Under the pieces are notes generated by a model. It was given only the letters and a program-made list of their open reading frames with translations. It did not search any database and was not told where the DNA came from. Positions 401-42,293 of a stretch of 43,444 nt of DNA are shown here, one piece after another. This DNA comes from Callorhinchus milii (Eukaryota). The translations under genes were made by a program, and so were the position numbers. The stretch is from assembly GCF_018977255.1 (NCBI RefSeq), contig NW_024704768.1:2728001-2771444 (forward strand), written 5' to 3'. Position 1 is the stretch's first letter. Each line of letters starts with the position of its first letter.

Positions 401-3073
401 TCAGCAAAATTTGATATCTGACACCGCCACATTAACCACAGACATGTAGGTGAGGATTTCCATCTTCAGGCTGTTTTGGAACACAATCCGGTGACCAGTC
501 GAGAGGTTGATTTCAAACGTGTCGCCCAAGAAGGCAATCATAATCTGTAAATGGAAAGGAGTGTTTCGTGAGTGAATATTTCCCACGTCTGCGAGCTCGT
601 CACTCCCATCCTCACTGGGCTCCGCCACTCGTGCTTTCACTCACAATAAACTACATCTGACGCAAGTCTTCACTGGGCTCCACTGACTCCCGATCAAAGC
701 TATGGATCGATTTCAAGATCCTCTCACTCGTCTACAAATCCCTTCACCCACTGCCATTACCTTTCCATTACTCAACTACCCACTGCCTCCGCTCGGCTGT
801 CTCTGGCTTCCTGTTTGTCCCTCGTTCCCTCTCCGCCAATCCCTTCCTGTGATTTCAGTCACTACCCCTTGAAGCTTTGGGACTCTCTCCCAGATGCTGC
901 GCTGAATGAAGGGCGCTGTGCAAATGCAAGTTGTTGTTGTATCGAATATAAGGATTATTATGAGTATTCTCCTTTACTATTTACCTCCACTTGTTTCCCC
1001 CAAAAGAAGGGGAAGTTGTCATCTCTTTGCTCATGTCCCCATTCGCCATCTTTCCGGGTGGCCATGAAAATCTTTTTCTTATCACGCAGATGATTGAAAC
1101 GAGGGTCGAAGTGTAAGGCAATGTTTCTGTCATCTTTGCCAAGATTCACGGTGAATCTACAACTGGGCAGAACAGAGAGAAGCAAACGTTGTAAAATGCC
1201 GTTATTTGAATATTCTTACCTCTATGACCGGCAGAATGGGTCGTGGCACAGATATTGGGTTTAAAAGATAATTGAGGGTCGAACAAGACACAAATGTTCC
1301 GTACTGACTCAGTGAGGTCAGAGTGCATCTGTGAAGTGATGCTGCCAGGACCTGAGGTGAGGAGGTGCTGACGGGAGCCAAGTATTCAATTGGATAAAAT
1401 TGTCTCTCATCCAGGACTTGACGTCTGACAGACATCCATCAGGACAGCAGTGTCCTGGAGTCGAGGCTGGAGGCAGAGAGATCGAGTTGGGTATCAACAT
1501 TGGGTATCTACTAAAACTGTTCAGTTGTATCAATTGGATCAATTGAACAGACCCCGTGCGATTCAAAGCCCAAATCTGCTTCTCTTTAGCTCAGTCTGAG
1601 CCGCACGTGGGGATGTGATGAACGTGTTTGTTGGTCAAGACAGAAAAAACAGGATTCTCACCTCTCGACCTCCTCCAGAATCCTCCCTCTGATCCTCACC
1701 GCGTCTCCGGGCTGCATCTTCATTCCCGTCACTTCAAACAGCTGTGGTGTTGGGAGCAAAACACAGGGCAATGCATTACAACACTGACCCCCCCTAATAA
1801 TCAGCTCTGTTTGTGGGGTAAACCCTTTGCCCACAAAATACACATTCAATGCACTTTACAGTATATTCTGGGAAGCGCTTTTAAGACATCTCAACGACGT
1901 GATAAGGCACTGTATCAAATGCAAGGATTGATCATTATTATTATTAAATTAAGAGAGTGAGTCTCATTGTGGACGACAGTCCTTTTAGAGTGTTTGCAAC
2001 CACTCAAAACAGGTTCGGATTCGGTAATGTCAGATGTCAAGTTCTGGATGAGAGACAACTTTCTCCAATTGGTCAGAGTCTCCGGATGTTTTAATCACAG
2101 TAAACCTTTAATTATGCATACATGTGGAAAAAAAAGTCACGTCTATCTTAATAAAACAGAGCAATGCTACTGAGCTTTGCAGGTTCAGCACTTTGTCTTT
2201 ACGGCAAGCGAACTTTAGTTCTTCAAGCGATCAAGCCTCGCTCTCAGTCTTCTGTCTTCGTTGTCCAAGCTTTCAATCTTCGTTGTTCTCTGCAACCACT
2301 CAGCGATGCTCTCGAGTTAACTAACTTACTTAAGTTGGACCGCGGTTTTTATAAATGTTTTATAAATGACAGAGACGGGCTCCAGCCTTGGAAGGGAGAA
2401 GCAAGATGTCCTGTGTTGAAGAACAATGAGCAAAGCTGCTTTGTCTCAAAAGGGTCTGCTTATCTAGAAGATATGGGTACAAGGATGTGCCAGGGTCGAA
2501 TATGTTGGGTACGCTCTAAGATGCTTGATTGGAGAAGAAGGGGGGAAGATCCCTTAGGTGGAAGAACAAGTATAACTACCCTGAATTTAGGCAAGTAAGA
2601 CAGCAGATCCAACCAGACAAAGTATCTTTGAAGCACACATTGAGTCAGGTCGCAAGGGTCAACCCACACATTGTGTAACTGAGTTGACGGTTTGTGGCCT
2701 TGAGTCAGAACACGACGAACTGGTCAAGGTCCCACCCGCTTGGGGAGAACAAGATTGGAATGGGTGGCAGAGTGCCAGCACGACGATATTACTGTTAGTT
2801 CAAGTTCCTGTCTCAAGACCGTCCTCGCTGACTGTGATTTCGGTCAACTTTCCCCTCCCCCTCCCGAGGCCGGTACTGTTCATCTCATTGGGACGTGAAA
2901 AGCTCCGTATCAACGTCGATTCGTAACAATAATAATCCTTACATTTGATATAGCGTCTGATCTTCGAGAAGTCTCAAAGCGCTTTGCAGAACGTACTATA
3001 AAGTGAATCATATTGTATTATGTAAACTATTGCGCTGCCACATATCTGTCGGCCGCATTTAACTCACCTCCAT
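401..3073 (-). CDS. Prototype galectin (galectin-1/2-like), copy 1; exons complement(3068-3073, 1662-1741, 985-1156, 401-544), 133 aa
   Basis: Exons of 6/80/172/144 nt with GT-AG junctions; the 80- and 172-nt middle exons match the LGALS1 layout. Protein ME-LFEVTGMKMQPGDAVRIRGRILEEVERFTVNLGKDDRNIALHFDPRFNHLRDKKKIFMATRKDGEWGHEQRDDNFPFFWGKQVEIMIAFLGDTFEINLSTGHRIVFQNSLKMEILTYMSVVNVAVSDIKFC aligns without gaps to the galectin-1 core (LHFNPRF...WGxEQR). PolyA signal AATAAA on the minus strand at 368-373. Confidence 0.9.
670..940 (+). mobile_element. L2 LINE 3' fragment in galectin intron 3 (paralogous copies ~8730-9005 and ~17620-17910, minus)
   Basis: HW-P-IK--IDFKIL-LVYKSLH-like ORF2 C-terminus followed by ...gggcgctgtgcaaatgcaag(ttg)n tail. 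Confidence 0.7.
1250..1500 (-). mobile_element. L2 RT-region fragment in galectin intron 2 (paralogs ~8170-8420 and ~17065-17310, plus)
   Basis: Translates CLSDVKSWMRDNF(I/L)QLN...VRNIGVLFDPQLSF, the typical L2 ORF2 post-RT motif. Confidence 0.7.
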
Positions 3074-7408: not shown

Positions 7409-9275
7409 ATGGAGGTGAGTTAAATGCGGCCGACAGATATGTGGCAGCGCAATAGTTTATATGCTTGCTGTAAAGACAAAGTGCTGAACCTGCAAAGCTC
7501 AGTAGCATTGCTCTGTTTTATTAAGATAGACGTGACTTTTTTTTCCACATGTATGCATAATTAAAGGTTTACTGTGATTAAAACATCCGGAGACTCTGAC
7601 CAATTGGAGAAAGTTGTCTCTCATCCAGAACTTGACATCTGACATTACCGAATCCAAACCTGTTTTGAGTGGTTGCAAACACTCTAAAAGGACTGTCGTC
7701 CACAATGAGACTCACTCTCTTAATTTAATAATAATAATGATCAATCCTTGCATTTGATACAGTGCCTTATCACGTCGTTGAGATGTCTTAAAAGCGCTTC
7801 CCAGAATATACTGTAAAGTGCATTGAATGTGTATTTTGTGGGCAAAGGGTTTACCCCACAAACAGAGCTGATTATTAGGGGGGGTCAGTGTTGTAATACA
7901 TTGCCCTGTGTTTTGCTCCCAACACCACAGCTGTTTGAAGTGACGGGAATGAAGATGCAGCCCGGAGACGCGGTGAGGATCAGAGGGAGGATTCTGGAGG
8001 AGGTCGAGAGGTGAGAATCCTGTTTTTTCTGTCTTGACCAACAAACACGTTCATCACATCCCCACGTGCGGCTCAGACTGAGCTAAAGAGAAGCAGATTT
8101 GGGCTTTGAATCGCACGGGTTCTGTTCAATTGATCCAATTGATACAACTGAACAGTTTTAGTAGACACCCAATGTTGATACCCAACTCGATCTCTCTGCC
8201 TCCAGCCTCGACTCCAGGACACTGCTGTCCTGATGGATGTCTGTCAGACGTCAAGTCCTGGATGAGAGACAATTTTCTCAATTGAATACTTGGCTCCCGT
8301 CAGCACCTCCTCACCTCAGGTCCTGGCAGCATCACTTCACAGATGCACTCTGACCTCACTGAGTCAGTACGGAACATTGGTGTCTTGTTCGACCCTCAAT
8401 TATCTTTTAAACCCAACATCTGTGCCACGACCCATTCTGCCGGTCATAGAGGTAAGAATATTCAAATAACGGCATTTTACAACGTTTGCTTCTCTCTGTT
8501 CTGCCCGGTTGCAGATTCACCGTGAATCTTGGCAAAGATGACAGAAACATTGCTTTACACTTCGACCCTCGTTTCAATTTTCTGGGTGGCATCAAAAAGA
8601 TTTTCATGGCCACCCGGAATGATGGCGAATGGGGACATCAGCATCAAGATGACAACTTCCCCTTCTATTGGGGGAAACAAGTGGAGGTATATAGTAAAGG
8701 ACAATACTCATAATAATCCTTATATTCGATACAACAACAACTTGCATTTGCACAGCGCCCTTCATACAGCGCAGCATCTGGGAGAGAGTCCCAAAGCTTC
8801 AAGGGGTAGTGACTGAAATCACAGGAAGGGATTGGCGGAGAGGGAACGAGGGACAAACAGGAAGCCAGAGACAGCCGAGCGGAGGCAGTGGGTAGTTGAG
8901 TAATGGAAAGGTAGAGAGGTGCCAGTGGGTGAAGGGATTTGTAGACGAGTGAGAGGATCTTGAAATCGATCCATAGCTTTGATAGGGAGTCAGTGGAGCC
9001 CAGTGAAGACTTGCGTCAGATGTAGTTTATTGTGAGTGAGAGCACGAGTGGCGGAGCCCAGTGAGGATGGGAGTGACGAGCTCGCAGACGTGGGAAATAT
9101 TCACTCACGAAACACTCCTTTCCATTTACAGATTATGATTGCCTTCTTGGGCGACACGTTTGAAATCAACCTCTCGACTGGTCACCGGATTGTGTTCCAA
9201 AACAGCCTGAAGATGGAAATCCTCACCTACATGTCTGTGGCTAATATGACTGTGTCCGATATCAAATTTTGCTGA
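7409..9275 (+). CDS. Prototype galectin (galectin-1/2-like), copy 2; exons 7409-7414, 7931-8010, 8515-8686, 9132-9275, 133 aa
   Basis: ATG GAG|gtgagt micro-exon, then 80/172/144-nt exons with canonical splice sites and an open frame. CRD reads LHFDPRFNFLGGIKKIFMATRNDGEWGHQHQ. AATAAA at 9303-9308. Confidence 0.9.
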
Positions 9276-10313: not shown

Positions 10314-10640
10314 GTGGAGTCCTGTAGCTCAGTGGTTAGAGCACTCGCTTTGCAAGCGAGAGACCTGAGTTCAATTCCAGGCAGAGGGCGAAACCTTGGG
10401 CAAGTTTCCTTACTCCACACAGAGCCTAATAATAATCCCTCCAAAACCAAACACAATAATAAATTGGTCATTTTCAATCTACGACTGTTTGTGGGACATT
10501 GCTGTGCGCAATTGGCTGCCGCGTTCGCCCACAAATATACAGTCAATTCACTTTACAGTGTATTCTGTAAAGCGCTTTGGGACGTCCTCCCGACGTGATA
10601 AGCGCTATATCAAATGCAAGGATTATTATTATTATTATTA
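10314..10640 (+). mobile_element. Full-length young tRNA-derived SINE (Deu-core remnant, L2-like 3' tail, (TAT)n)
   Basis: tRNA-like head with A box (tagctcagtgg) and B box (gttcaattcc), body gtgggacattgctgtgcgcaattggctgccgcgtt, tail gcgctatatcaaatgcaagga(tta)n. Many near-identical copies in the window. Confidence 0.9.
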
Positions 10641-11680
10641 ACTATCACGGTTGGTCATTGTTTAACCTGCCTCGCCACTTTGTGCTCATGCCGTGTGTGC
10701 AAGGAACGCTATTCAACTTGTTTCTCTGCTTAACACAAAACTCATCACATTCCAAAAATGCTCTTCGTTACACAGGATCAGATAACCGGCCGTGACCCGA
10801 AGCCAACATGAAGATAACAGTCACAAGCCTTGCACTTGATACATGTTGTATCATCACGACTTGTCACGTCTTCGAGACGTCTCAAAGCGCTTCACAGGAT
10901 TCACTGTAGAGTGAATTGAATGTGTGTACGAGATACTGATATTAGATCCAGAACCTCAGAGATTTCAATGGAAGGAAATCAAGTTCAATGACTATAGCAA
11001 ATCCCACTCTCTCTTGTCTTCCACCTGATAGTGTCTGTCTGGTAGACGAGTCAAGTAATAATCCTGGCATTTGGGTTAGATCCTTGACATGTGGGGAGCA
11101 TGTCCCACAAACAGCCGTGAAGTCAACAACCAATTTTATCGAGGTGAGGGGGATTGTTGGCCAGTAGGAACCCCTTCTCTTTTCGAACAGCGCCGTAGGA
11201 TCTTTAACGTCCACCTGAGCAGGTACAGGTAGTCAGGGTGCTTGGTTTAATGTCTCATCCCTCACCTGAAGAATGGGGCTCCGACATTGTAGTGCTCCCC
11301 CAGCACAGCACTGGAAAGTCATCTTACACTATTTTGGTTCCAAGTCTTCACATTCTTCTGATTGAGGCAAGACAGAGAGTGCTGCCGACTGAGCCAGGCT
11401 CAAGACTCTCGAATACAGGTAGATAGGAACATGGGAACAGGAGGAGGCCATTCAGCTGTACCTCAGGTAAAGGGAGTCTAAGTCCCAGACTGCTGTCAAC
11501 TCAATTAAACCGTCTTTGAAATTTGGACTTTGTTTGGCCCATAAAATGCACAAGAGGTTTCTTTGTTCACTGCAGGAAATATTGTTTGATCTGAACAAGA
11601 TTGATTCCCAGTGCCAGGATTGAGCTTTATCTGTAAGTTTCATTCTGGAACTACAGAAACAACAGCTCCAGGATTGGTAG

Positions 11681-12282
11681 TGTTAGATATCATTCCGTTT
11701 AGGTAAAATCTGTTAAGCCAAGTTTATTGAAACAAACATATACCATTGAAACGCGCTTATTTCAGCAGTCAACCGTCAACACCGCTAGGCCGAGTGCTGC
11801 GGGTCCGGAAGAGGGCTCTTTCTTAGTTACTGCAGTTATTCGAGCTTTCGATCTTCCATCACGATCTGTTGGCACCGTTCCGGACTGCTTCCCACTTCTC
11901 TTTTTCGGCTACTTGTGGTCAGTGGCCTGACTTGAAATTACATCCCTTTTTACATAGCCAATCACTTTGTGTTGTACCGCGCCTTATTCGACGGTTTGTC
12001 GACCAACCGCCTGCTCCTTCCTGGGGCCCTGAACCCACTTCTGATACAGTCACGTACTCAGGTTAATCAATCATTTGACTTGGTGCCAACCTGACTGAGG
12101 CTCCACCAGGTCTTCCCTTTGTCCTGATAGGAGATGGACCAGTTGAGGGCTGTACCCGGTGCTTGTTATTTTGTGGTGTGGGATCATTAGTACATTCCTT
12201 TTAAGTGACTGCTCATTTCTTATCAGGTATCCCGGGACGGTACCAAACTCCTTTAGTTTAAGCAACTTGCTCATTAGTTGCT
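11681..12282 (-). mobile_element. Truncated duplicate of the same solo LTR
   Basis: GTAG|TGTTAGATA start (intact TG); matches 14507-15109 and is cut at the tandem-duplication junction. Confidence 0.85.
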
Positions 12283-12624: not shown

Positions 12625-12953
12625 GTGGAGTCCTGTAGCTCAGTGGTTAGAGCACTCGCTTTGCAAGTGAGAGACCTGAGTTCAATTCCCGGCAGAGGGC
12701 GAAACCTCGGGCAAGTTTCCTTACTCCACACAGAGCCTAATAATAATCCCTCCAAAACCAAACACAATAATAAATTGGTCATTTTCAATCCACGACTGTT
12801 TGTGGGACATTGCTGTGCGCAATTGGCCGCCGCGTTCGCCCACAAATATACAGTCAATTCACTTTACAGTGTGTTCTGTGAAGCGCTTTGGGACGTCCTC
12901 CCGACGTGATAAGCGCTATATCAAATGCAAGGATTATTATTATTATTATTATT
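12625..12953 (+). mobile_element. Same SINE, duplicated with the tandem unit
   Basis: Same sequence and same flanks as 10314-10640. Confidence 0.9.
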
Positions 12954-13859
12954 AACTATCACGGTTGGTCATTGTTTAATCTGCCTCGCCACTTTGTGCT
13001 CATGCCGTGTGTCCCGAATTACTCGACCTTATCTACAATTCAGTGCAGACCCTGATATTCCTTCTCTCTCACTCCTAAAACTATGTACTTTTTCTTTGCT
13101 GCTTACGTTTCCAGATTTCACCCACAAAATACACATTCAATTCACTCTACAGTGCATCCGGTGAAGCGCTTTGAGACGTCTCGAAGACGTGACAAGCCAT
13201 TGTAACTTGGCCACAGCCCTGTGCAAGGAACTTGTTTCTCTGCTTATCACAAAACTCATCACATTCCAAAAATGCTCTTCGTTACACAGGATCAGATAAC
13301 CGGCCGTGACCCAAAGCCAACATGAAGATAACAGTCACAAGCCTTGCACTTCGAGACGTCTCAAAGCGCTTCACAGGATTCACTGTAGAGTGAATTGAAT
13401 GTGTGTACGAGATACTGAACCTCCAGAACCTCAGAGATTTCAATGGAAGGAAATCAAGTTCAATGACTATAGCAAATCCCACTCTCTCTTGTCTTCCACC
13501 TGATAGTGTCTGTCTGGTAGACGAGTCAAGTAATAATCCTGGCATTCGGGTTAGATCCTTGACATGTGGGGAGCATGTCCCACAAACAGCCGTGAAGTCA
13601 ACAACCAATTTTATCGAGGTGAGGGGGATTGTTGGCCAGTAGGAACCCCTTCTCTTTTCGAACAGCGCCGTAGGATCTTTAACGTCCACCTGAGCAGGTA
13701 CAGGTAGTCAGGGTGCTTGGTTTAATGTCTCATCCCTCACCTGAAGAATGGGGCTCCGACATTGTAGTGCTCCCCCAGCACAGCACTGGAAAGTCATCTT
13801 ACACTATTTTGGTTCCAAGTCTTCATATTCTTCTGATTGAGGCAAGACAGAGAGTGCTG

Positions 13860-14205
13860 TCTCTCTCTGTGGAGTCCTGTAGCTCAGTGGTTAGAGCACT
13901 CGCTTTGCAAGTGAGAGACCTGAGTTCAATTCCAGGCAGAGGGCGAAACCTTGGGCAAGTTTCCTTACTCCACACAGAGCCTAATAATAATCCCTCCAAA
14001 ACCAAAAACAATAATAAAAATTGGTCATTTTCAATCTACAACTGTTTGTGGGACATTGCTGTGCGCAATTGGCTGCCGCGTTCGCCCACAAATATACAGT
14101 CAATTCACTTTACAGTGTGTTCTGTGAAGCGCTTTGGGACGTCCTCCCGACGTGAAAAGCGCTATATCAAATGCAAGGATTATTATTATTATTATATATA
14201 TATAT
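13860..14205 (+). mobile_element. Same SINE, inserted after the tandem duplication; TSD TGCTG
   Basis: Absent from the paralogous site (~11370-11390 gacagagagtgctgccgact); TGCTG at 13855-13859 and 14206-14210. Confidence 0.92.
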
Positions 14206-14506
14206 TGCTGCCGACTGAGCCAGGCTCAAGACTCTCGAATACAGGTAGATAGGAACATAGGAACAGGAGGAGGCCATTCAGCTGTACCTCAGGTAAAGGG
14301 AGTCTAAGTCCCAGACTGCTGTCAACTCAATTAAACCGTCTTTGAAATTTGGACTTTGTTTGGCCCATAAAATGCACAAGAGGTTTCTTTGTTCACTGCA
14401 GGAAATATTGTTTGATCTGAACAAGATTGATTCCCAGTGCCAGGATTGAGCTTTATCTGTAAGTTTCATTCTGGAACTACAGAAACAACAGCTCCAGGAT
14501 TGGTAG

Positions 14507-15379
14507 AGTTAGATATCATTCCGTTTAGGTAAAATCTGTTAAGCCAAGTTTATTGAAACAAACATATACCATTGAAACGCGCTTATTTCAGCAGTCAACC
14601 GTCAACACCGCTAGGCCGAGTGCTGCGGGTCCGGAAGAGGGCTCTTTCTTAGTTACTGCAGTTATTCGAGCTTTCGATCTTCCATCACGATCTGTTGGCA
14701 CCGTTCCGGACTGCTTCCCACTTCTCTTTTTCGGCTACTTGTGGTCAGTGGCCTGACTTGAAATTACATCCTGTATTTACATAGCCAATCACTTTGTGTT
14801 GTACCGCGCCTTATTCGACGGTTTGTCGACCAACCGCCTGCTCCTTCCTGGGGCCCTGAACCCACTTCTGATACAGTCACGTACTCAGGTTAATCAATCA
14901 TTTGACTTGGTGCCAACCTGACTGAGGCTCCACCAGGTCTTCCCTTTGTCCTGATAGGAGATGGACCAGTTGAGGGCTGTATCCGGTGCTTGTTATTTTG
15001 TGGTGTGGGATCATTAGTACATTCCTTTTAAGTGACTGCTCATTTCTTATCAGGTATCCCGGGACGGTACCAAACTCCTTTAGTTTAAGCAACTTGCTCA
15101 TTAGTTGCTGTCCTTGAGGGTTGCCTTTTGTTGCTTGGCAGGCCCTGCCAGAATCTAGCGAGCTCCTGTGTCGACCAATACTTTGGACCGTTCCCTCTGT
15201 GGGTTGGTTGTTATTCACTGTTAAGAGGTAACTCACTGCCCTTTTCCAACGCTGTCTTGTTATTCTTTCAGAAACAGAGAAAACCAGACGTGTCCTATCC
15301 CACGACTGTCAGTACTTTCTCCATTCTCCATTTGTTTAATGTTTCATTGTTATTAGACGACAACTTCTATTATCTAACA
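14507..15379 (-). mobile_element. Solo LTR (~873 bp) with 4-bp TSD GTAG
   Basis: Ends (T/A)GTTAGATA...TATCTAACA, flanked by GTAG at 14503-14506 and 15380-15383. The empty site is visible in the paralogous upstream region of copy 2 (~7014-7040, ccaggatcg-gtcg-gaataatcc). On the minus strand there is a CCAAT box, an AT-rich TATA-like box and AATAAA (14549-14554) ~40 nt from the end. Confidence 0.85.
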
Positions 15380-16056: not shown

Positions 16057-18178
16057 ATGGTGGTGAGTAGAACGCAGCCGAGAGATGTGTGTCAGCGCAG
16101 CAGCCGATATGACACAATACAATTCACTTTGCAGTACGTTCTGCGAAGCACTTTGAGACAGACGTCTGAAAGGCACGATCAGGCGCTATATTAAATGTAA
16201 GGTTATTAATGTTACTTAATTGACATTTAAACAGAGCTTTCCACGTCCCAAGGAGATGAACAATACCGGTCTCGGGAGGGGGAGGGGAAATTTGACCGAA
16301 AGCACAGTCACCGAGGATAGTCTTGAGACGGAACTTGAATGAACAGTAATATCGTCGTGCTGGCACTCTATCATCCATTACAATTTTGTTCCCACAAAGT
16401 AGCCATCATGGGTTAATGTTCCAGCTTCATTTAATGTAGCGCCAGAAAGGGCTCAGTCACTCTCACTCTCACCTCAAAGGCTGCGAGTAAAATCCTGTGA
16501 AGCGCTTTGAGACGTCTTGACAGTATGATAAGGCGCTGTACGAAGTGCAAGGGTTGTTATTATAAATCCTTACGCACGAATAGAGGGGACTATCGTCCAC
16601 AATGAGACTCACTCTCTTGATTTAGTAATAATAATGATCAATCCTTACATTTGATACAGCGCCTTATCACGTCGTTGACACGTCTCAAATGCGCTTCCCA
16701 GAATATACTGTGAAGTGCATTGAATGAGTATTTTGTGGGCAAAGGGTTTACCCCACAAACAGAGTTGCTGATAAGGGGATCAGTGTTGTAATACATTGCC
16801 CTGTGTTTTGCTCCCAACACCACAGCTGTTTGAAGTGACGGGAATGAAGATGCAGCCCGGAGACACGGTGAGGATCAGAGGGAGGATTCTGGAGGAGGTC
16901 GTGAGGTGAGAATCCCGGATTTCCCATCATGATCAACAAACACGTTCATCACATCCCCACGTGCGGCTCAGACTGAGCTAAAGAGAAGCAGATTTGGGCT
17001 TTGAATCGCACGGGGTCTGTTCAATTGATCCAATTGATACAACTGAACAGTTTTAGTAGATACCCAATGTTGATACCCAACTCGATCTCTCTGCCTCCAG
17101 CCTCGACTCCAGGACACTGCTGTCCTGATGGATGTCTGTCAGACGTCAAGTCCTGGATGAGAGACAATTTTCTCCAATTGAATACTTGGCTCCCGTCAGC
17201 ACCTCCTCACCTCAGGTCCTGGCAGCATCACTTCACAGATGCACTCTGACCTCACTGAGTCAGTACGGAACATTGGGTTCGACCCTCAATTATCTTTTAA
17301 ACCCAATATCTGTGCCACGACCCATTCTGCCGGTCACAGAGGTAAGAATATTCAATTAACGGCATTTTACAACGTTTGCTTCTCTCTGTTCTGCCCGGTT
17401 GCAGATTCACCGTGAATCTTGGCAAAGATGACAGAAACATTGCCTTACACTTCGACCCTCGTTTCAATCATCTGTGTGATATCAAAAAGATTATCATGGC
17501 CACCCGGAAAGATGGCACATGGGGACATGAGCAAAAAGATGACCACTTCCCCTTCTATTGGGGGAAACAAGTGGAGGTAAATAATAATGGATAATACTGA
17601 TAATAACCCTTACATTCGATACAACAACAGTTTGGATTTACACTGCGCCCTTCATACAACGCAGCATCTGGGAGAGAGTCCCAAAGCTTCAGGGGTTAGT
17701 GGCTGAAAGCGCAGGAAGGTAGTGGCATGGAGGGAACGAGGGACAAGCAGGACACCAGAGCCAGCCGAGCAGAGGCAGTGGGTAGTGGAGTGATGGGAAA
17801 GCAGGTCAGAAAGGTAGGGAGGTGCCGGGGGGGTGAAGGGATTTGTAGACGATTGAGAGGATCTTGAAATCGATCCGTCCTGTGATAGGGAGTCAGTGGA
17901 GCCCAGTGAGGACTTGTGTGACATGTAGTTTATTGTGAGTGACAATCCGAGTGGCGGAGCCCAGTGAGGATGGGAGTGACGAGCTCGCAGATATGGGAAA
18001 TATTCACTCACGGAACACTCCTTTCCATTTACAGATTATAATTGCCTTCTTGGGCGACACGTTTGAAATCACTCTCTCGACTGGTCACCGGATTGTGTTC
18101 CAAAACAGCCTGAAGATGGAAATCCTCACCTACATGTCTGCGTTTAATATGACTGTGTCCGATATCAAATTTTACTGA
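16057..18178 (+). CDS. Prototype galectin (galectin-1/2-like), copy 3; exons 16057-16062, 16826-16905, 17405-17576, 18035-18178, 133 aa
   Basis: ATG GTG|gtgagt, same exon sizes, open frame. CRD reads LHFDPRFNHLCDIKKIIMATRKDGTWGHEQK. AATAAA at 18206-18211; TATATATA at 15925-15932. Confidence 0.9.
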
Positions 18179-20686: not shown

Positions 20687-26628
<5,942 letters not shown>

Positions 26629-28013: not shown

Positions 28014-29589
28014 ATGGCGGCGCCCACCGGCGGTCCCGCGCTGTTCGGGAACTTCAGCCGTTATTATCAGTTCAACCCGACGGCCGAACGGCTCAGCCTC
28101 ATCCCCGCCGCCGCCATCACTGAGCTGCTGCCGCCCCGCGGCTCCCGGGAGGCCCTCGCCCTGGATGTGGGCTGTAACTGTGGGGTAAGTGGGCGACCCC
28201 CCCCCACCCCACCCCCCCCACCCTCACCCCCCCCACCCCACCCCCAACTCCACCCATACCACCCCCATACCCCCCACCCCCAACCCCCCACCCTCACCCC
28301 CCCACCCTCACCCCCCCCACCCCCCCCACCCTCACCCCCACCCTCACCCCACCCACCCTCACCCCCCCCACCCCCCACCCTCACCCCCCCCACCCCTCAC
28401 CCTCACCCCCCACCCTCACCCCCACCCACCCTCACCCCCCCCACCCTCACCCCCACCCACCCTCACCCCCCCACCCTCACCCCCACCCTCACCCCCCCAC
28501 CCTCACCCCTCACCCTCACCCCCACCCTCACCCCCACCCACCCTCACCCCCCCCACCCTCACCCCAACCCCCCACACACTCACCCCCAAACCCCATAACA
28601 AAATGTGCGTCGCGGTCAGTGTGAGCTCTGAGGAGCCTCTTGAGGGGCAGAAGGCCATGGATTCACAAGGGGTTGAGGCCAACGGACTGTGGGACGGAGT
28701 TCCAGAGGGCGGGGGGGGGGGGGGGGGCGGCTGGGGTGGATGTGAGGGGGGTTGGGGGGTGCAGAGAGGCTGGAGGCTTGACCGCTAGATGGTGGGTGGC
28801 CGGCCGGAGGGAGCGGTGGGAGGCTGTGGGGAGTGGGGGGGGGGTGCGCCGTGGAGCAGGAGCCGTGCCGGACCCCACTGAGCACTCGTATCGGGAGTAG
28901 TTGTTTTCTTTTTTTTAACCATCTTTAACTAAAATCTTTATAAATAAAAAAGAAAGAAAGAAAGAAAAGAACAAACTCTCTTTCGGTCTAAAAATTCCCC
29001 TCTTCAGGACTTGAGCCTCGCTCTGTACCAGCACCTCGACGGCTCGAGCGGAAACCTGCAGCCGGAGGTTCCGAGAGGGTTGAACCTGAAGCTGTTGGGC
29101 TGCGACATCGACGCCGACCTGATCCGCAGGGCCGTCGAGTCCAACCCCTTCCCGGAGTCCGTCTCGTACGTTACGCTGGACATCATGGACCCCGCGAGGC
29201 GAGAGGCCGTGCTCGAGCCCTACCTGGGCGGCTTCGGCCGGCGCTCCTTCGACATTTGCTTCTGCATGTCCGTCACCATGTGGATCCACCTCCACCACGG
29301 CGACCAGGGACTCCTGGACTTCCTGCTCCTCCTGGCCCGGCTCTCGGGGGTCCTGCTGATCGAGGCCCAGCCCTGGAGGTGTTACCGCTCGGCAGCCCGG
29401 AGGATGCGCAGGCTCGGGCGCAGCGACTTCGACCACTTCAAGAGGCTCTCGATCAGGGGTGACTTAGCGCAGAGGATCTCGCACTTTCTGGTGACAGACT
29501 GCGACATGGAGCTGCTTCACTGCTTCGGCAGCACGAGCTGGGACAGGAACTTGCTTCTGTTCAGAAAACTGCCTCCGAATCAAAGCTGA
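28014..29589 (+). CDS. BCDIN3D: RNA 5'-monophosphate methyltransferase BCDIN3D; exons 28014-28184, 29008-29589; 250 aa
   Basis: MAAP...FGNFSRYYQFNP, SAM motif LDVGCNCG|DLSLALY split by a single phase-0 intron, GCDID, FDICFCMSVTMWIHLHHGD, EAQPWRCY, FGSTSWDRNLLLF. AATAAA at 29635-29640. Confidence 0.95.
28197..28590. repeat. C-rich low-complexity array (CCCTCACCCCCCCA-like) at the start of the BCDIN3D intron
   Basis: ~400 nt of C runs separated by A/TCA, almost without G. Confidence 0.9.
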
Positions 29590-33785: not shown

Positions 33786-34250
33786 GATAAGGCGCTACAT
33801 CAAATGCAAGGATCATCGTTATTAATGAAAAGGATGCTGGAGACTGAGCCAGGCTGTTGCACAATTTTGTGGGGGGGTGGAAATCAATAAAAGAGGTGGT
33901 CAATTAACACTCTGTAGTTACATTAAATCAAGTAAATCGACAGTTTGTAGAGGTTAATCAATTCATGTTCCCCCTCTCCTCCAAAATGACCTTCCCAAGA
34001 TGCAGCTTGAGATGGGGAAGTGGTGTAATGTCTCAATAAGAAAGTCATTAATGTGTGGCTTGTACAATCAGCCTACTAGTCATATACAGAGATAGGTTTA
34101 TCTGGTGCAATGGTGTTCTAACCACCTGTAGACTGGCTCAGTTCCTCCTTGAGGTGACGAAGGGAGGGGCGGGGATGGTTATAGTTATTTGCCTTTTATG
34201 GTTATTGCCGCTCAACCTCCGTGTAAAGGGAGATAACCAGGACTGGTTCT

Positions 34251-34559
34251 CCTCGCATTTGAGACAGCGCCTTATCTCGTCTTCGAGACGTCTCAAGGCG
34301 CTTCACAGAATAGACTGTAAAGTGAATTGACTGTATATTTGTGGGCGAACGCGGCAGCCAATTGCACACAGCAATGTCCCACAAACAGTCGTAGATTGAA
34401 AATGACCAATTTATTATTGTTTTTGGTTTTGGAGGGATTATTATTAGGCTCTGTGTGGAGTAAGGAAACTTGCCCATGGTTTGGCCCTCTGCCTGGAATT
34501 GAACTCAGGTCTCTCACTTGCAAAGCGAGTGCTCTAACCACTGAGCCACAGGACTCCAC
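34251..34559 (-). mobile_element. Full-length young SINE
   Basis: Reverse complement of the 10314-type SINE. Confidence 0.88.
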
Positions 34560-37928: not shown

Positions 37929-38259
37929 GTGGAGTCCTGTAGCTCAGTGGTGAGAGCACTCGCTTTGCAAGTGAGAGACCTGAGTTCAATCCCAGGCAGA
38001 GGGCGAAACCTCGGGCAAGTTTCCTTACTCCACACAGAGCCTAATAATAATCCTCCAAAAAAAAACAATAATAAATTGGTCATTTTCAATCCACGACTGT
38101 TTGTGGGACATTGCTGTGCGCAATTGGCTGCCGCGTTCGCCCACAAATATACAGTCAATTCACTTTACAGTGTGTTCTGTGAAGCGCTTTGGGACGTCCT
38201 CCCGACGTGAAAAGCGCTATATCAAATGCAAGGATTATTATTATTATTATTATTATTAT
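37929..38259 (+). mobile_element. Full-length young SINE, TSD GCTCAC
   Basis: 10314-type sequence; GCTCAC at 37898-37903 and 38263-38268. Confidence 0.9.
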
Positions 38260-41957: not shown

Positions 41958-42293
41958 GTGGAGTCCTGTAGCTCAGTGGTTAGAGCACTCGCTTTGCGAG
42001 CGAGAGACCTGAGTTCAATTCCAGGCAGAGGGCGAAACCTCGGGCAAGTTTCCTTACTCCACACAGAGCCTAATAATAATCCCTCCAAAACCAAAAACAA
42101 TAATAAATTGGTCATTTTCAATCTACGACTGTTTGTGGGACATTGCTGTGCGCAATCGGCTGCCGCGTTCGCCCACAAATATACAGTCAATTCACTTTAC
42201 AGTGTATTCTGTGAAGCGCTTTGGGACGTCCTCCCGACGTGAAAAGCGCTATATCAAATGCGAGGATTATTATTATTATTATTATTATTATTA
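41958..42293 (+). mobile_element. Full-length young SINE inserted into an L2 3' fragment (TSD ATCT)
   Basis: Flanks rejoin to ...ccccatct|tcaggtcgcgcctgaagacc, which is seen uninterrupted at ~25760-25790. Confidence 0.9.

Follow-up and report, generated by a model that had tools for sequence, protein, structure and literature searches.

Congerins I and II, proto-type galectins of the conger eel, offer the closest comparison for the locus considered here: they are duplicated, show a dN/dS of 2.6, and have loops that tune sugar specificity (PMC3269628 and PMC2843614, both in excerpt). [quoted passage not shown] From a mutational perspective, template switches in apes are also pertinent. In these, a nearby reverse complement serves as template over a median of 12 nt, and a hairpin is left in the descendant (PMC7954356, in part); switches in yeast coding genes have been reported too (PMC8604942, likewise in part).

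The window analysed, a 43,444-nt stretch of Callorhinchus milii contig NW_024704768.1, contains three galectin genes, here A, B and C, each of 133 codons in four exons, with open frames and GT-AG introns (Table 1). Exon 3 of each scores 38-46 bits with the PF00337 profile, for which the curated cut-off is 22.1, and a proto-type layout of about 135 residues fits, there being one domain and neither a tail nor a second domain. The exon sizes of 80 and 172 nt are presumably those of LGALS1 as well. A and B form an inverted pair with about 1.3% non-coding divergence (35/2710), at a rate that is even along the pair once one distal segment is removed (p 0.38); C is about 11% diverged from both in introns 1 and 3. 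Like congerins, they are one-domain galectins of a fish that have been duplicated and in which amino-acid change is accelerated. However, congerins are galactoside binders with a demonstrated part in mucosal defence, whereas the Callorhinchus copies have lost two to four of the canonical sugar-binding residues, are 94-95% identical in coding DNA and share a likely conversion tract. The likeness to the opsins lies in the combination of evened introns and a divergent exon; a difference is that trees across species and sites of known function prove the peak of the opsins.

Table 1. Features of the galectin cluster, in window coordinates
Feature	Position	Strand	Remarks
Galectin copy A	401..3073	-	Coding exons 3073-3068, 1741-1662, 1156-985, 544-401
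Extra 6 nt of A transcript	1157..1162	-	AG acceptor 6 nt upstream of exon 3, A only
Galectin copy B	7409..9275	+	Coding exons 7409-7414, 7931-8010, 8515-8686, 9132-9275; putative expression
Likely gene-conversion tract	8045..8514	+	Intron 2, near-identical in A, B and C
Exon 3 of B	8515..8686	+	Contains the canonical sugar-binding set in full (positions 44, 46, 48, 61, 68, 71, 73)
Codons 51-54 of B, S4-S5 loop	8579..8590	+	Likely template-switch product; 5 of the 14 A/B differences
Codons 61-64 of B, likely template	8609..8620	+	Reverse complement equals codons 51-54 of B at 11 of 12 positions, reduced to 10 by B's later K64N
Codons 71-73 of B	8639..8647	+	E71Q, Q72H, R73Q; two more canonical sugar-binding residues gone
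Second variable patch	9237..9257	+	Exon 4, codons 122-128; B = C at codons 125-128
Galectin copy C	16057..18178	+	Coding exons 16057-16062, 16826-16905, 17405-17576, 18035-18178; putative expression
Exon 3 of C	17405..17576	+	Divergent version D of the same exon in run X2
Repeat copies of about 330 nt	10314-10640, 12625-12954, 13869-14195, 34250-34559, 37929-38255, 41958-42287		Likely SINE

A comparison of exon 3 between A and B shows 14 differences over its 172 nt, which give nine amino-acid changes and one purely silent codon. Exon 2 is identical (0/80), intron 2 has seven substitutions and one indel in 504 columns, and exon 4 has five differences in 144 nt, every one at codons 123-128. The recount agrees with the preliminary description, which had given the same figures for exons 2 and 3 and some eight differences for intron 2, and had listed three-way loop variants (HLRDK, FLGGI and HLCDI; HEQR, HQHQ and HEQK) that are indeed present, as is its second patch near the C-terminus (VVNVA, VANMT and AFNMT), which lies in exon 4. 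Its further claim, that the changes are confined to exon 3, does not hold, given the A/B differences at codons 123-128 and further exon-4 replacements in a C-type contig. That exon divergence exceeds intron divergence is correct for the A/B pair but not for C, whose exon 3 is slow relative to its introns 1 and 3 (A-C differences number 9/172 in exon 3 and 48/437 in intron 3).

How exceptional the A/B peak appears depends on the unit counted. With sites taken as independent, exon 3 stands far above the non-coding sequence (14/172 versus 35/2710, Fisher p 4.6e-7), and in site-by-site shuffles none of 5000 placed 14 differences in any 172-nt window. Grouped by hand, the 14 differences amount to about eight events, where 2.2 are expected (p 0.002-0.003, for an exon chosen in advance); with an event-level scan over any window, 1333 of 5000 shuffles were as extreme and the peak is not significant that way. 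Split by lineage, the hand-grouped events in exon 3 comprise five private to B versus 0.67 (p 0.0007) and three private to A versus 0.8 (p 0.048). In exon 4, a short C-to-B tract is conceivable since B and C agree at codons 125-128, and such a conversion could explain the A/B difference there, with its direction unpolarised for want of an outgroup; a local template search reported none for A's exon-4 patch.

The intron that would ordinarily serve as the yardstick has likely been homogenised by conversion across A, B and C. Sites private to C number 2 of 464 within the tract of Table 1, versus 93 of 818 in other non-coding columns, a disparity seen in none of 5000 shuffles. Being a likely conversion tract, intron 2 is unfit as a neutral clock. 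The tract probably extends into exon 3, since A and C have no silent difference there where about four are expected (p 0.004-0.018). What looked like a clear-cut count in favour of selection is thus weakened, the exon-3 differences being interdependent and intron 2 giving no neutral rate. A 399-nt contig from DNA run X1, spanning 8555-8958 in B coordinates, equals C over exon 3; in intron 3 it has five gap letters and fewer differences than a C copy should show, as though it had switched to A type, and it may be either a C/A haplotype produced by recombination or a chimeric contig.

The non-independence is best illustrated by the S4-S5 loop of B, where codons 51-54 were likely rewritten by one template switch, accounting at a stroke for 5 of the 14 differences and, likely, for a third of the A/B amino-acid changes. 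All five B-private bases in these codons agree with the reverse complement of the nearby codons 61-64, and an equally good match is given by only one of the 243 letter choices at the five sites and by 15 of 40000 random five-change clusters, the inverted match having been spotted by eye first and tested afterwards. The template of A or C gives a match of 11 and that of B itself one of 10, from which the switch likely preceded B's K64N change. A hairpin at this place is present in B only (-11.3 kcal/mol, z -2.64), with no strong pre-existing one in A or C (z 0.21 and -0.36), and is the expected footprint of a template switch. In apes, switches are depleted in coding DNA and 5.5% are length-preserving (PMC7954356, in excerpt); B's, by comparison, is length-neutral, in frame, situated in a ligand-binding loop and found in 4/4 runs examined. 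For B's codons 71-73, no local template above chance was found (best 8/11).

Seven residues, H44, N46, R48, N61, W68, E71 and R73, are held essential in galectins (PMC12116657, as excerpted). A retains five of them, C four and B three: D46 and A61 occur in all three copies, K73 in C, and Q71 with Q73 in B. For galectin-1, the available parts of two preprints report loss of glycan binding with N46D (bioRxiv 10.1101/2024.01.03.574113) and its near abolition with E71Q (bioRxiv 10.1101/2025.11.21.689721). Binding of beta-galactosides by A, B and C is, from these residues, predicted to be probably weak or absent, with B the least lactose-like. As N46 and N61 are lost in all copies, and B has E71Q and R73Q besides, a ligand other than ordinary lactose is probable. 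Six other galectin exons of the genome, identified as motif-bearing PF00337 matches, all have H44, N46, R48, N61 and W68, and the other single-domain-like loci on contig C31 (L008 and L009) keep the full canonical set. In L011 (G000:C6:1527509-1527760), another galectin exon, position 71 is Q and position 73 is E; degeneracy of galectin sites is thus recurrent in this genome. The variable positions of the cluster, 20 of which are in exon 3, fall at 36-41, 51-55, 59-67, 71-80 and 122-128; on the galectin-1 topology we assign these to the sheet that binds sugar and to the loops of that sheet, with placement and loop names both taken from sequence alignment.

Additional variation is evident in four DNA runs, all from one study and consulted as assembled contigs rather than reads. 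In run X2, the place of reference-type C exon 3 is taken by a 180-nt contig with a depth of 10.8, termed version D, that has 16 substitutions and a compensated 1-base deletion/insertion. Eleven of its codons are changed, none of them silently only and none, in this one contig, to a stop. Because D retains C's private states, it is either a C allele or an unassembled fourth copy; were it simply an allele of some age, a complete lack of silent differences would be improbable (p 0.015-0.044). In both X2 and X4, an exon-4 contig of C type shows at least three further differences from reference C, and those listed (Q109P, E115K, V127M) are all replacements, though silent ones may be hidden. Among the contigs listed over the exon-3 core, X4 has none of C type, a gap that is not proof of absence.

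Tests on codons give a divided answer. Between A and B, exon 3 has pN 0.082 and pS 0.075 (p 0.48). Codon models, whose tree assumption is broken by conversion, were fitted in single-hit and multi-hit form on exon 3 of A, B and C (ABC) or of these plus version D (ABCD). M0 gives dN/dS values of 2.0-4.7, with dN/dS = 1 never rejected (p 0.07-0.38). With single hits, M2a is preferred to M1a (p 0.034 for ABC, 0.0008 for ABCD); with double and triple mutations allowed, the fit is much better and the preference fades (p 0.43 and 0.09). The diversifying selection proposed in the preliminary description, for which site models were named as a check, is supported in part: it keeps its divergence peak on the binding exon and the single-hit result, but its dN/dS signal is gone under multi-hit models. 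Over A, B, C and D, single-base codon changes stand at 15 replacement to 1 silent by hand count, which rejects dN/dS of 0.5 (p 0.003-0.018) and of 0.2, but not of 1 (p 0.05-0.16). Changes in different lineages did not fall on shared codons more often than by chance (p 0.25 or higher), and family-conserved structural codons were not significantly spared (p 0.26-0.35).

These results bear most directly on the main rival to selection, unlikely in our estimation though deserving of real weight, in which redundant copies devoid of canonical binding drift near-neutrally under relaxed constraint, clustered mutation by template switches and other multi-base changes builds dense patches, and the converted intron 2 makes the exon look fast. 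The failure of multi-hit models to reject dN/dS = 1 is in keeping with such drift, as are the absence of N46 and N61 from all copies and the E71Q and R73Q of B, N46D and E71Q each being crippling in galectin-1. B's E71Q is a change that a decaying copy might carry and in that respect counts against selection. Clustering points the same way. One event covers a good part of the A/B differences, adjacent differences are about twofold over expectation even in introns (16 versus 8.5), and positive selection is known to be wrongly inferred from multi-base mutations (PMC7954356, in part). Yet neutral drift would not load one exon in both B and D, and a single silent-only codon among 21 variable ones is ill-suited to it. 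Nor does local templating account for D, whose patches have no local template above chance (15 tests), and decay sits poorly with A being spliced and with the frame kept in every version, A, B, C and D being free of stops and frameshifts.

The grouping of D's 19 changed bases in three dense patches would be natural if short conversion tracts had brought the B and D patches from a diverged galectin lost or missing from the assembly, with D perhaps a fourth gene. We regard this as improbable. Conversion does appear active in the cluster, and the roughly twofold difference in per-copy contig depth among runs would fit copy-number variation. However, exon 3 searched as DNA through the genome returned three matches, A, B and C themselves, a PF00337 profile search of the genome gave no close fourth, no galectin exon is present in 50 kb of flanks, and the nearest other paralogue is 45-49% identical in exon 3. 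Moreover, the template of B's main patch is 30 nt away in the same exon, and a diverged donor should carry silent differences, of which D's lack of any silent-only codon shows no sign. For the single conversion tract from a distant paralogue that had been raised earlier, no donor was found in the assembly. Sequencing or assembly error, also raised earlier, has a negligible chance of being the explanation and is excluded for A and B, as the B exon-3 core was recovered in 4/4 DNA runs (with 0, 0, 1 and 1 differences, the one difference being silent) and A-type contigs in 4/4, version D being the single contig described above.

Diversification of binding-face loops under selection, with conversion evening the surrounding DNA, in the manner of congerins, is the reading that we place just on the probable side. 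It is favoured because some eight exon-3 events are found where about two are expected and because none of D's changed codons is silent, and the case is suggestive, unproven. An older duplication would have given C, and a young inverted duplication A and B. Conversion would have proceeded across the copies, with selection against tracts that erased loop differences, and clustered mutations would have furnished new loop sequences, at least one loop presumably being rewritten by a single template switch. The ligand would probably be a foreign or variable glycan or protein and not plain lactose; a role in surface defence like that of the eel congerins is a guess by analogy. A bolder proposal, which we consider rather unlikely, is that the galectin-like locus is hypervariable and polymorphic and has given up the canonical galactose site. 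Its binding loops would be renewed in jumps of several bases, one of them being the template switch in the same exon, and its highly divergent alleles would be maintained by MHC-like balancing selection against a changing non-galactoside ligand.

Were selection on the loops the correct reading, the cluster would stand beside the congerins as a second and independent instance of such diversification, among galectins seemingly past lactose binding, and its few natural variants of the binding site could be put to the test. Likely, too, it lets one trace in a vertebrate how a ligand-binding loop was rewritten by a template switch. In any event there is a caution, in that a count taken as positive selection can be inflated by one replication slip together with a converted intron used as a clock.

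Copy A is transcribed and spliced. In run X8, guessed to be RNA, one spliced contig unites its exons 2, 3 and 4; the contig, of A type and the only one from that run, was aligned over 178 nt with the matching place in C. This sole transcript contig uses the upstream acceptor of A, by which two residues, one a cysteine, are gained in frame before strand S3. DNA run X3 and the transcript contig of X8 both have a G-to-A change at 8010, the last base of exon 2 in B coordinates, which alters codon 29 and is at the splice donor.

With regard to surrounding organization, LGALS1/2 and their degenerate kin, mammalian GRIFIN among them, resemble the present genes in having four exons with a short middle exon of S3-F3 type, and conserved neighbours of LGALS1/2 are gga1, elfn2, tmem184b, cacna1i and cacng2 (PMC10343441, in part). 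Different neighbours were seen here. Downstream exons at 26212-26628 and 28948-29589 correspond to Bax1-I (under cut-off) and Bin3 (over cut-off), with 37 of 47 frames scanned, and upstream no family was over cut-off in the 70 of 142 frames scanned. We take the Bax1-I and Bin3 genes to be FAIM2 and BCDIN3D, which adjoin in human. Neither Bin3 nor Bax1-I is among the LGALS1/2 and GRIFIN neighbours in Table 1 of PMC10343441, as far as the available part of that source goes, and since the setting with these two genes is unlike the usual LGALS1/2 neighbourhood, the cluster may have relocated. An aquaporin gene was considered as a synteny marker beside the cluster and rejected, the nearest MIP match on the contig being about 1.9 Mb off. 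In a partial library, no paper describing this cluster was found; PMC10343441 and PMC4989294, as excerpted there, treat other galectins of cartilaginous fish.

Several minor features of the region complete the picture. Intron 1 of A contains about 800 nt (2210-3019) missing from B, and as the first part of this is common to C, B likely has a deletion. Between B and C there is a 900-nt direct duplication (11380-12282 and 14206-15109, 99%), and the interspersed repeats of Table 1, 92-98% identical, are of a young family. Elsewhere in the genome, galectin loci at G000:C1:32388472-32394252 and G000:C3:56715539-56721315 lie on different contigs yet have identical scores and spacing, which suggests a duplication of very recent date or the double assembly of one region.
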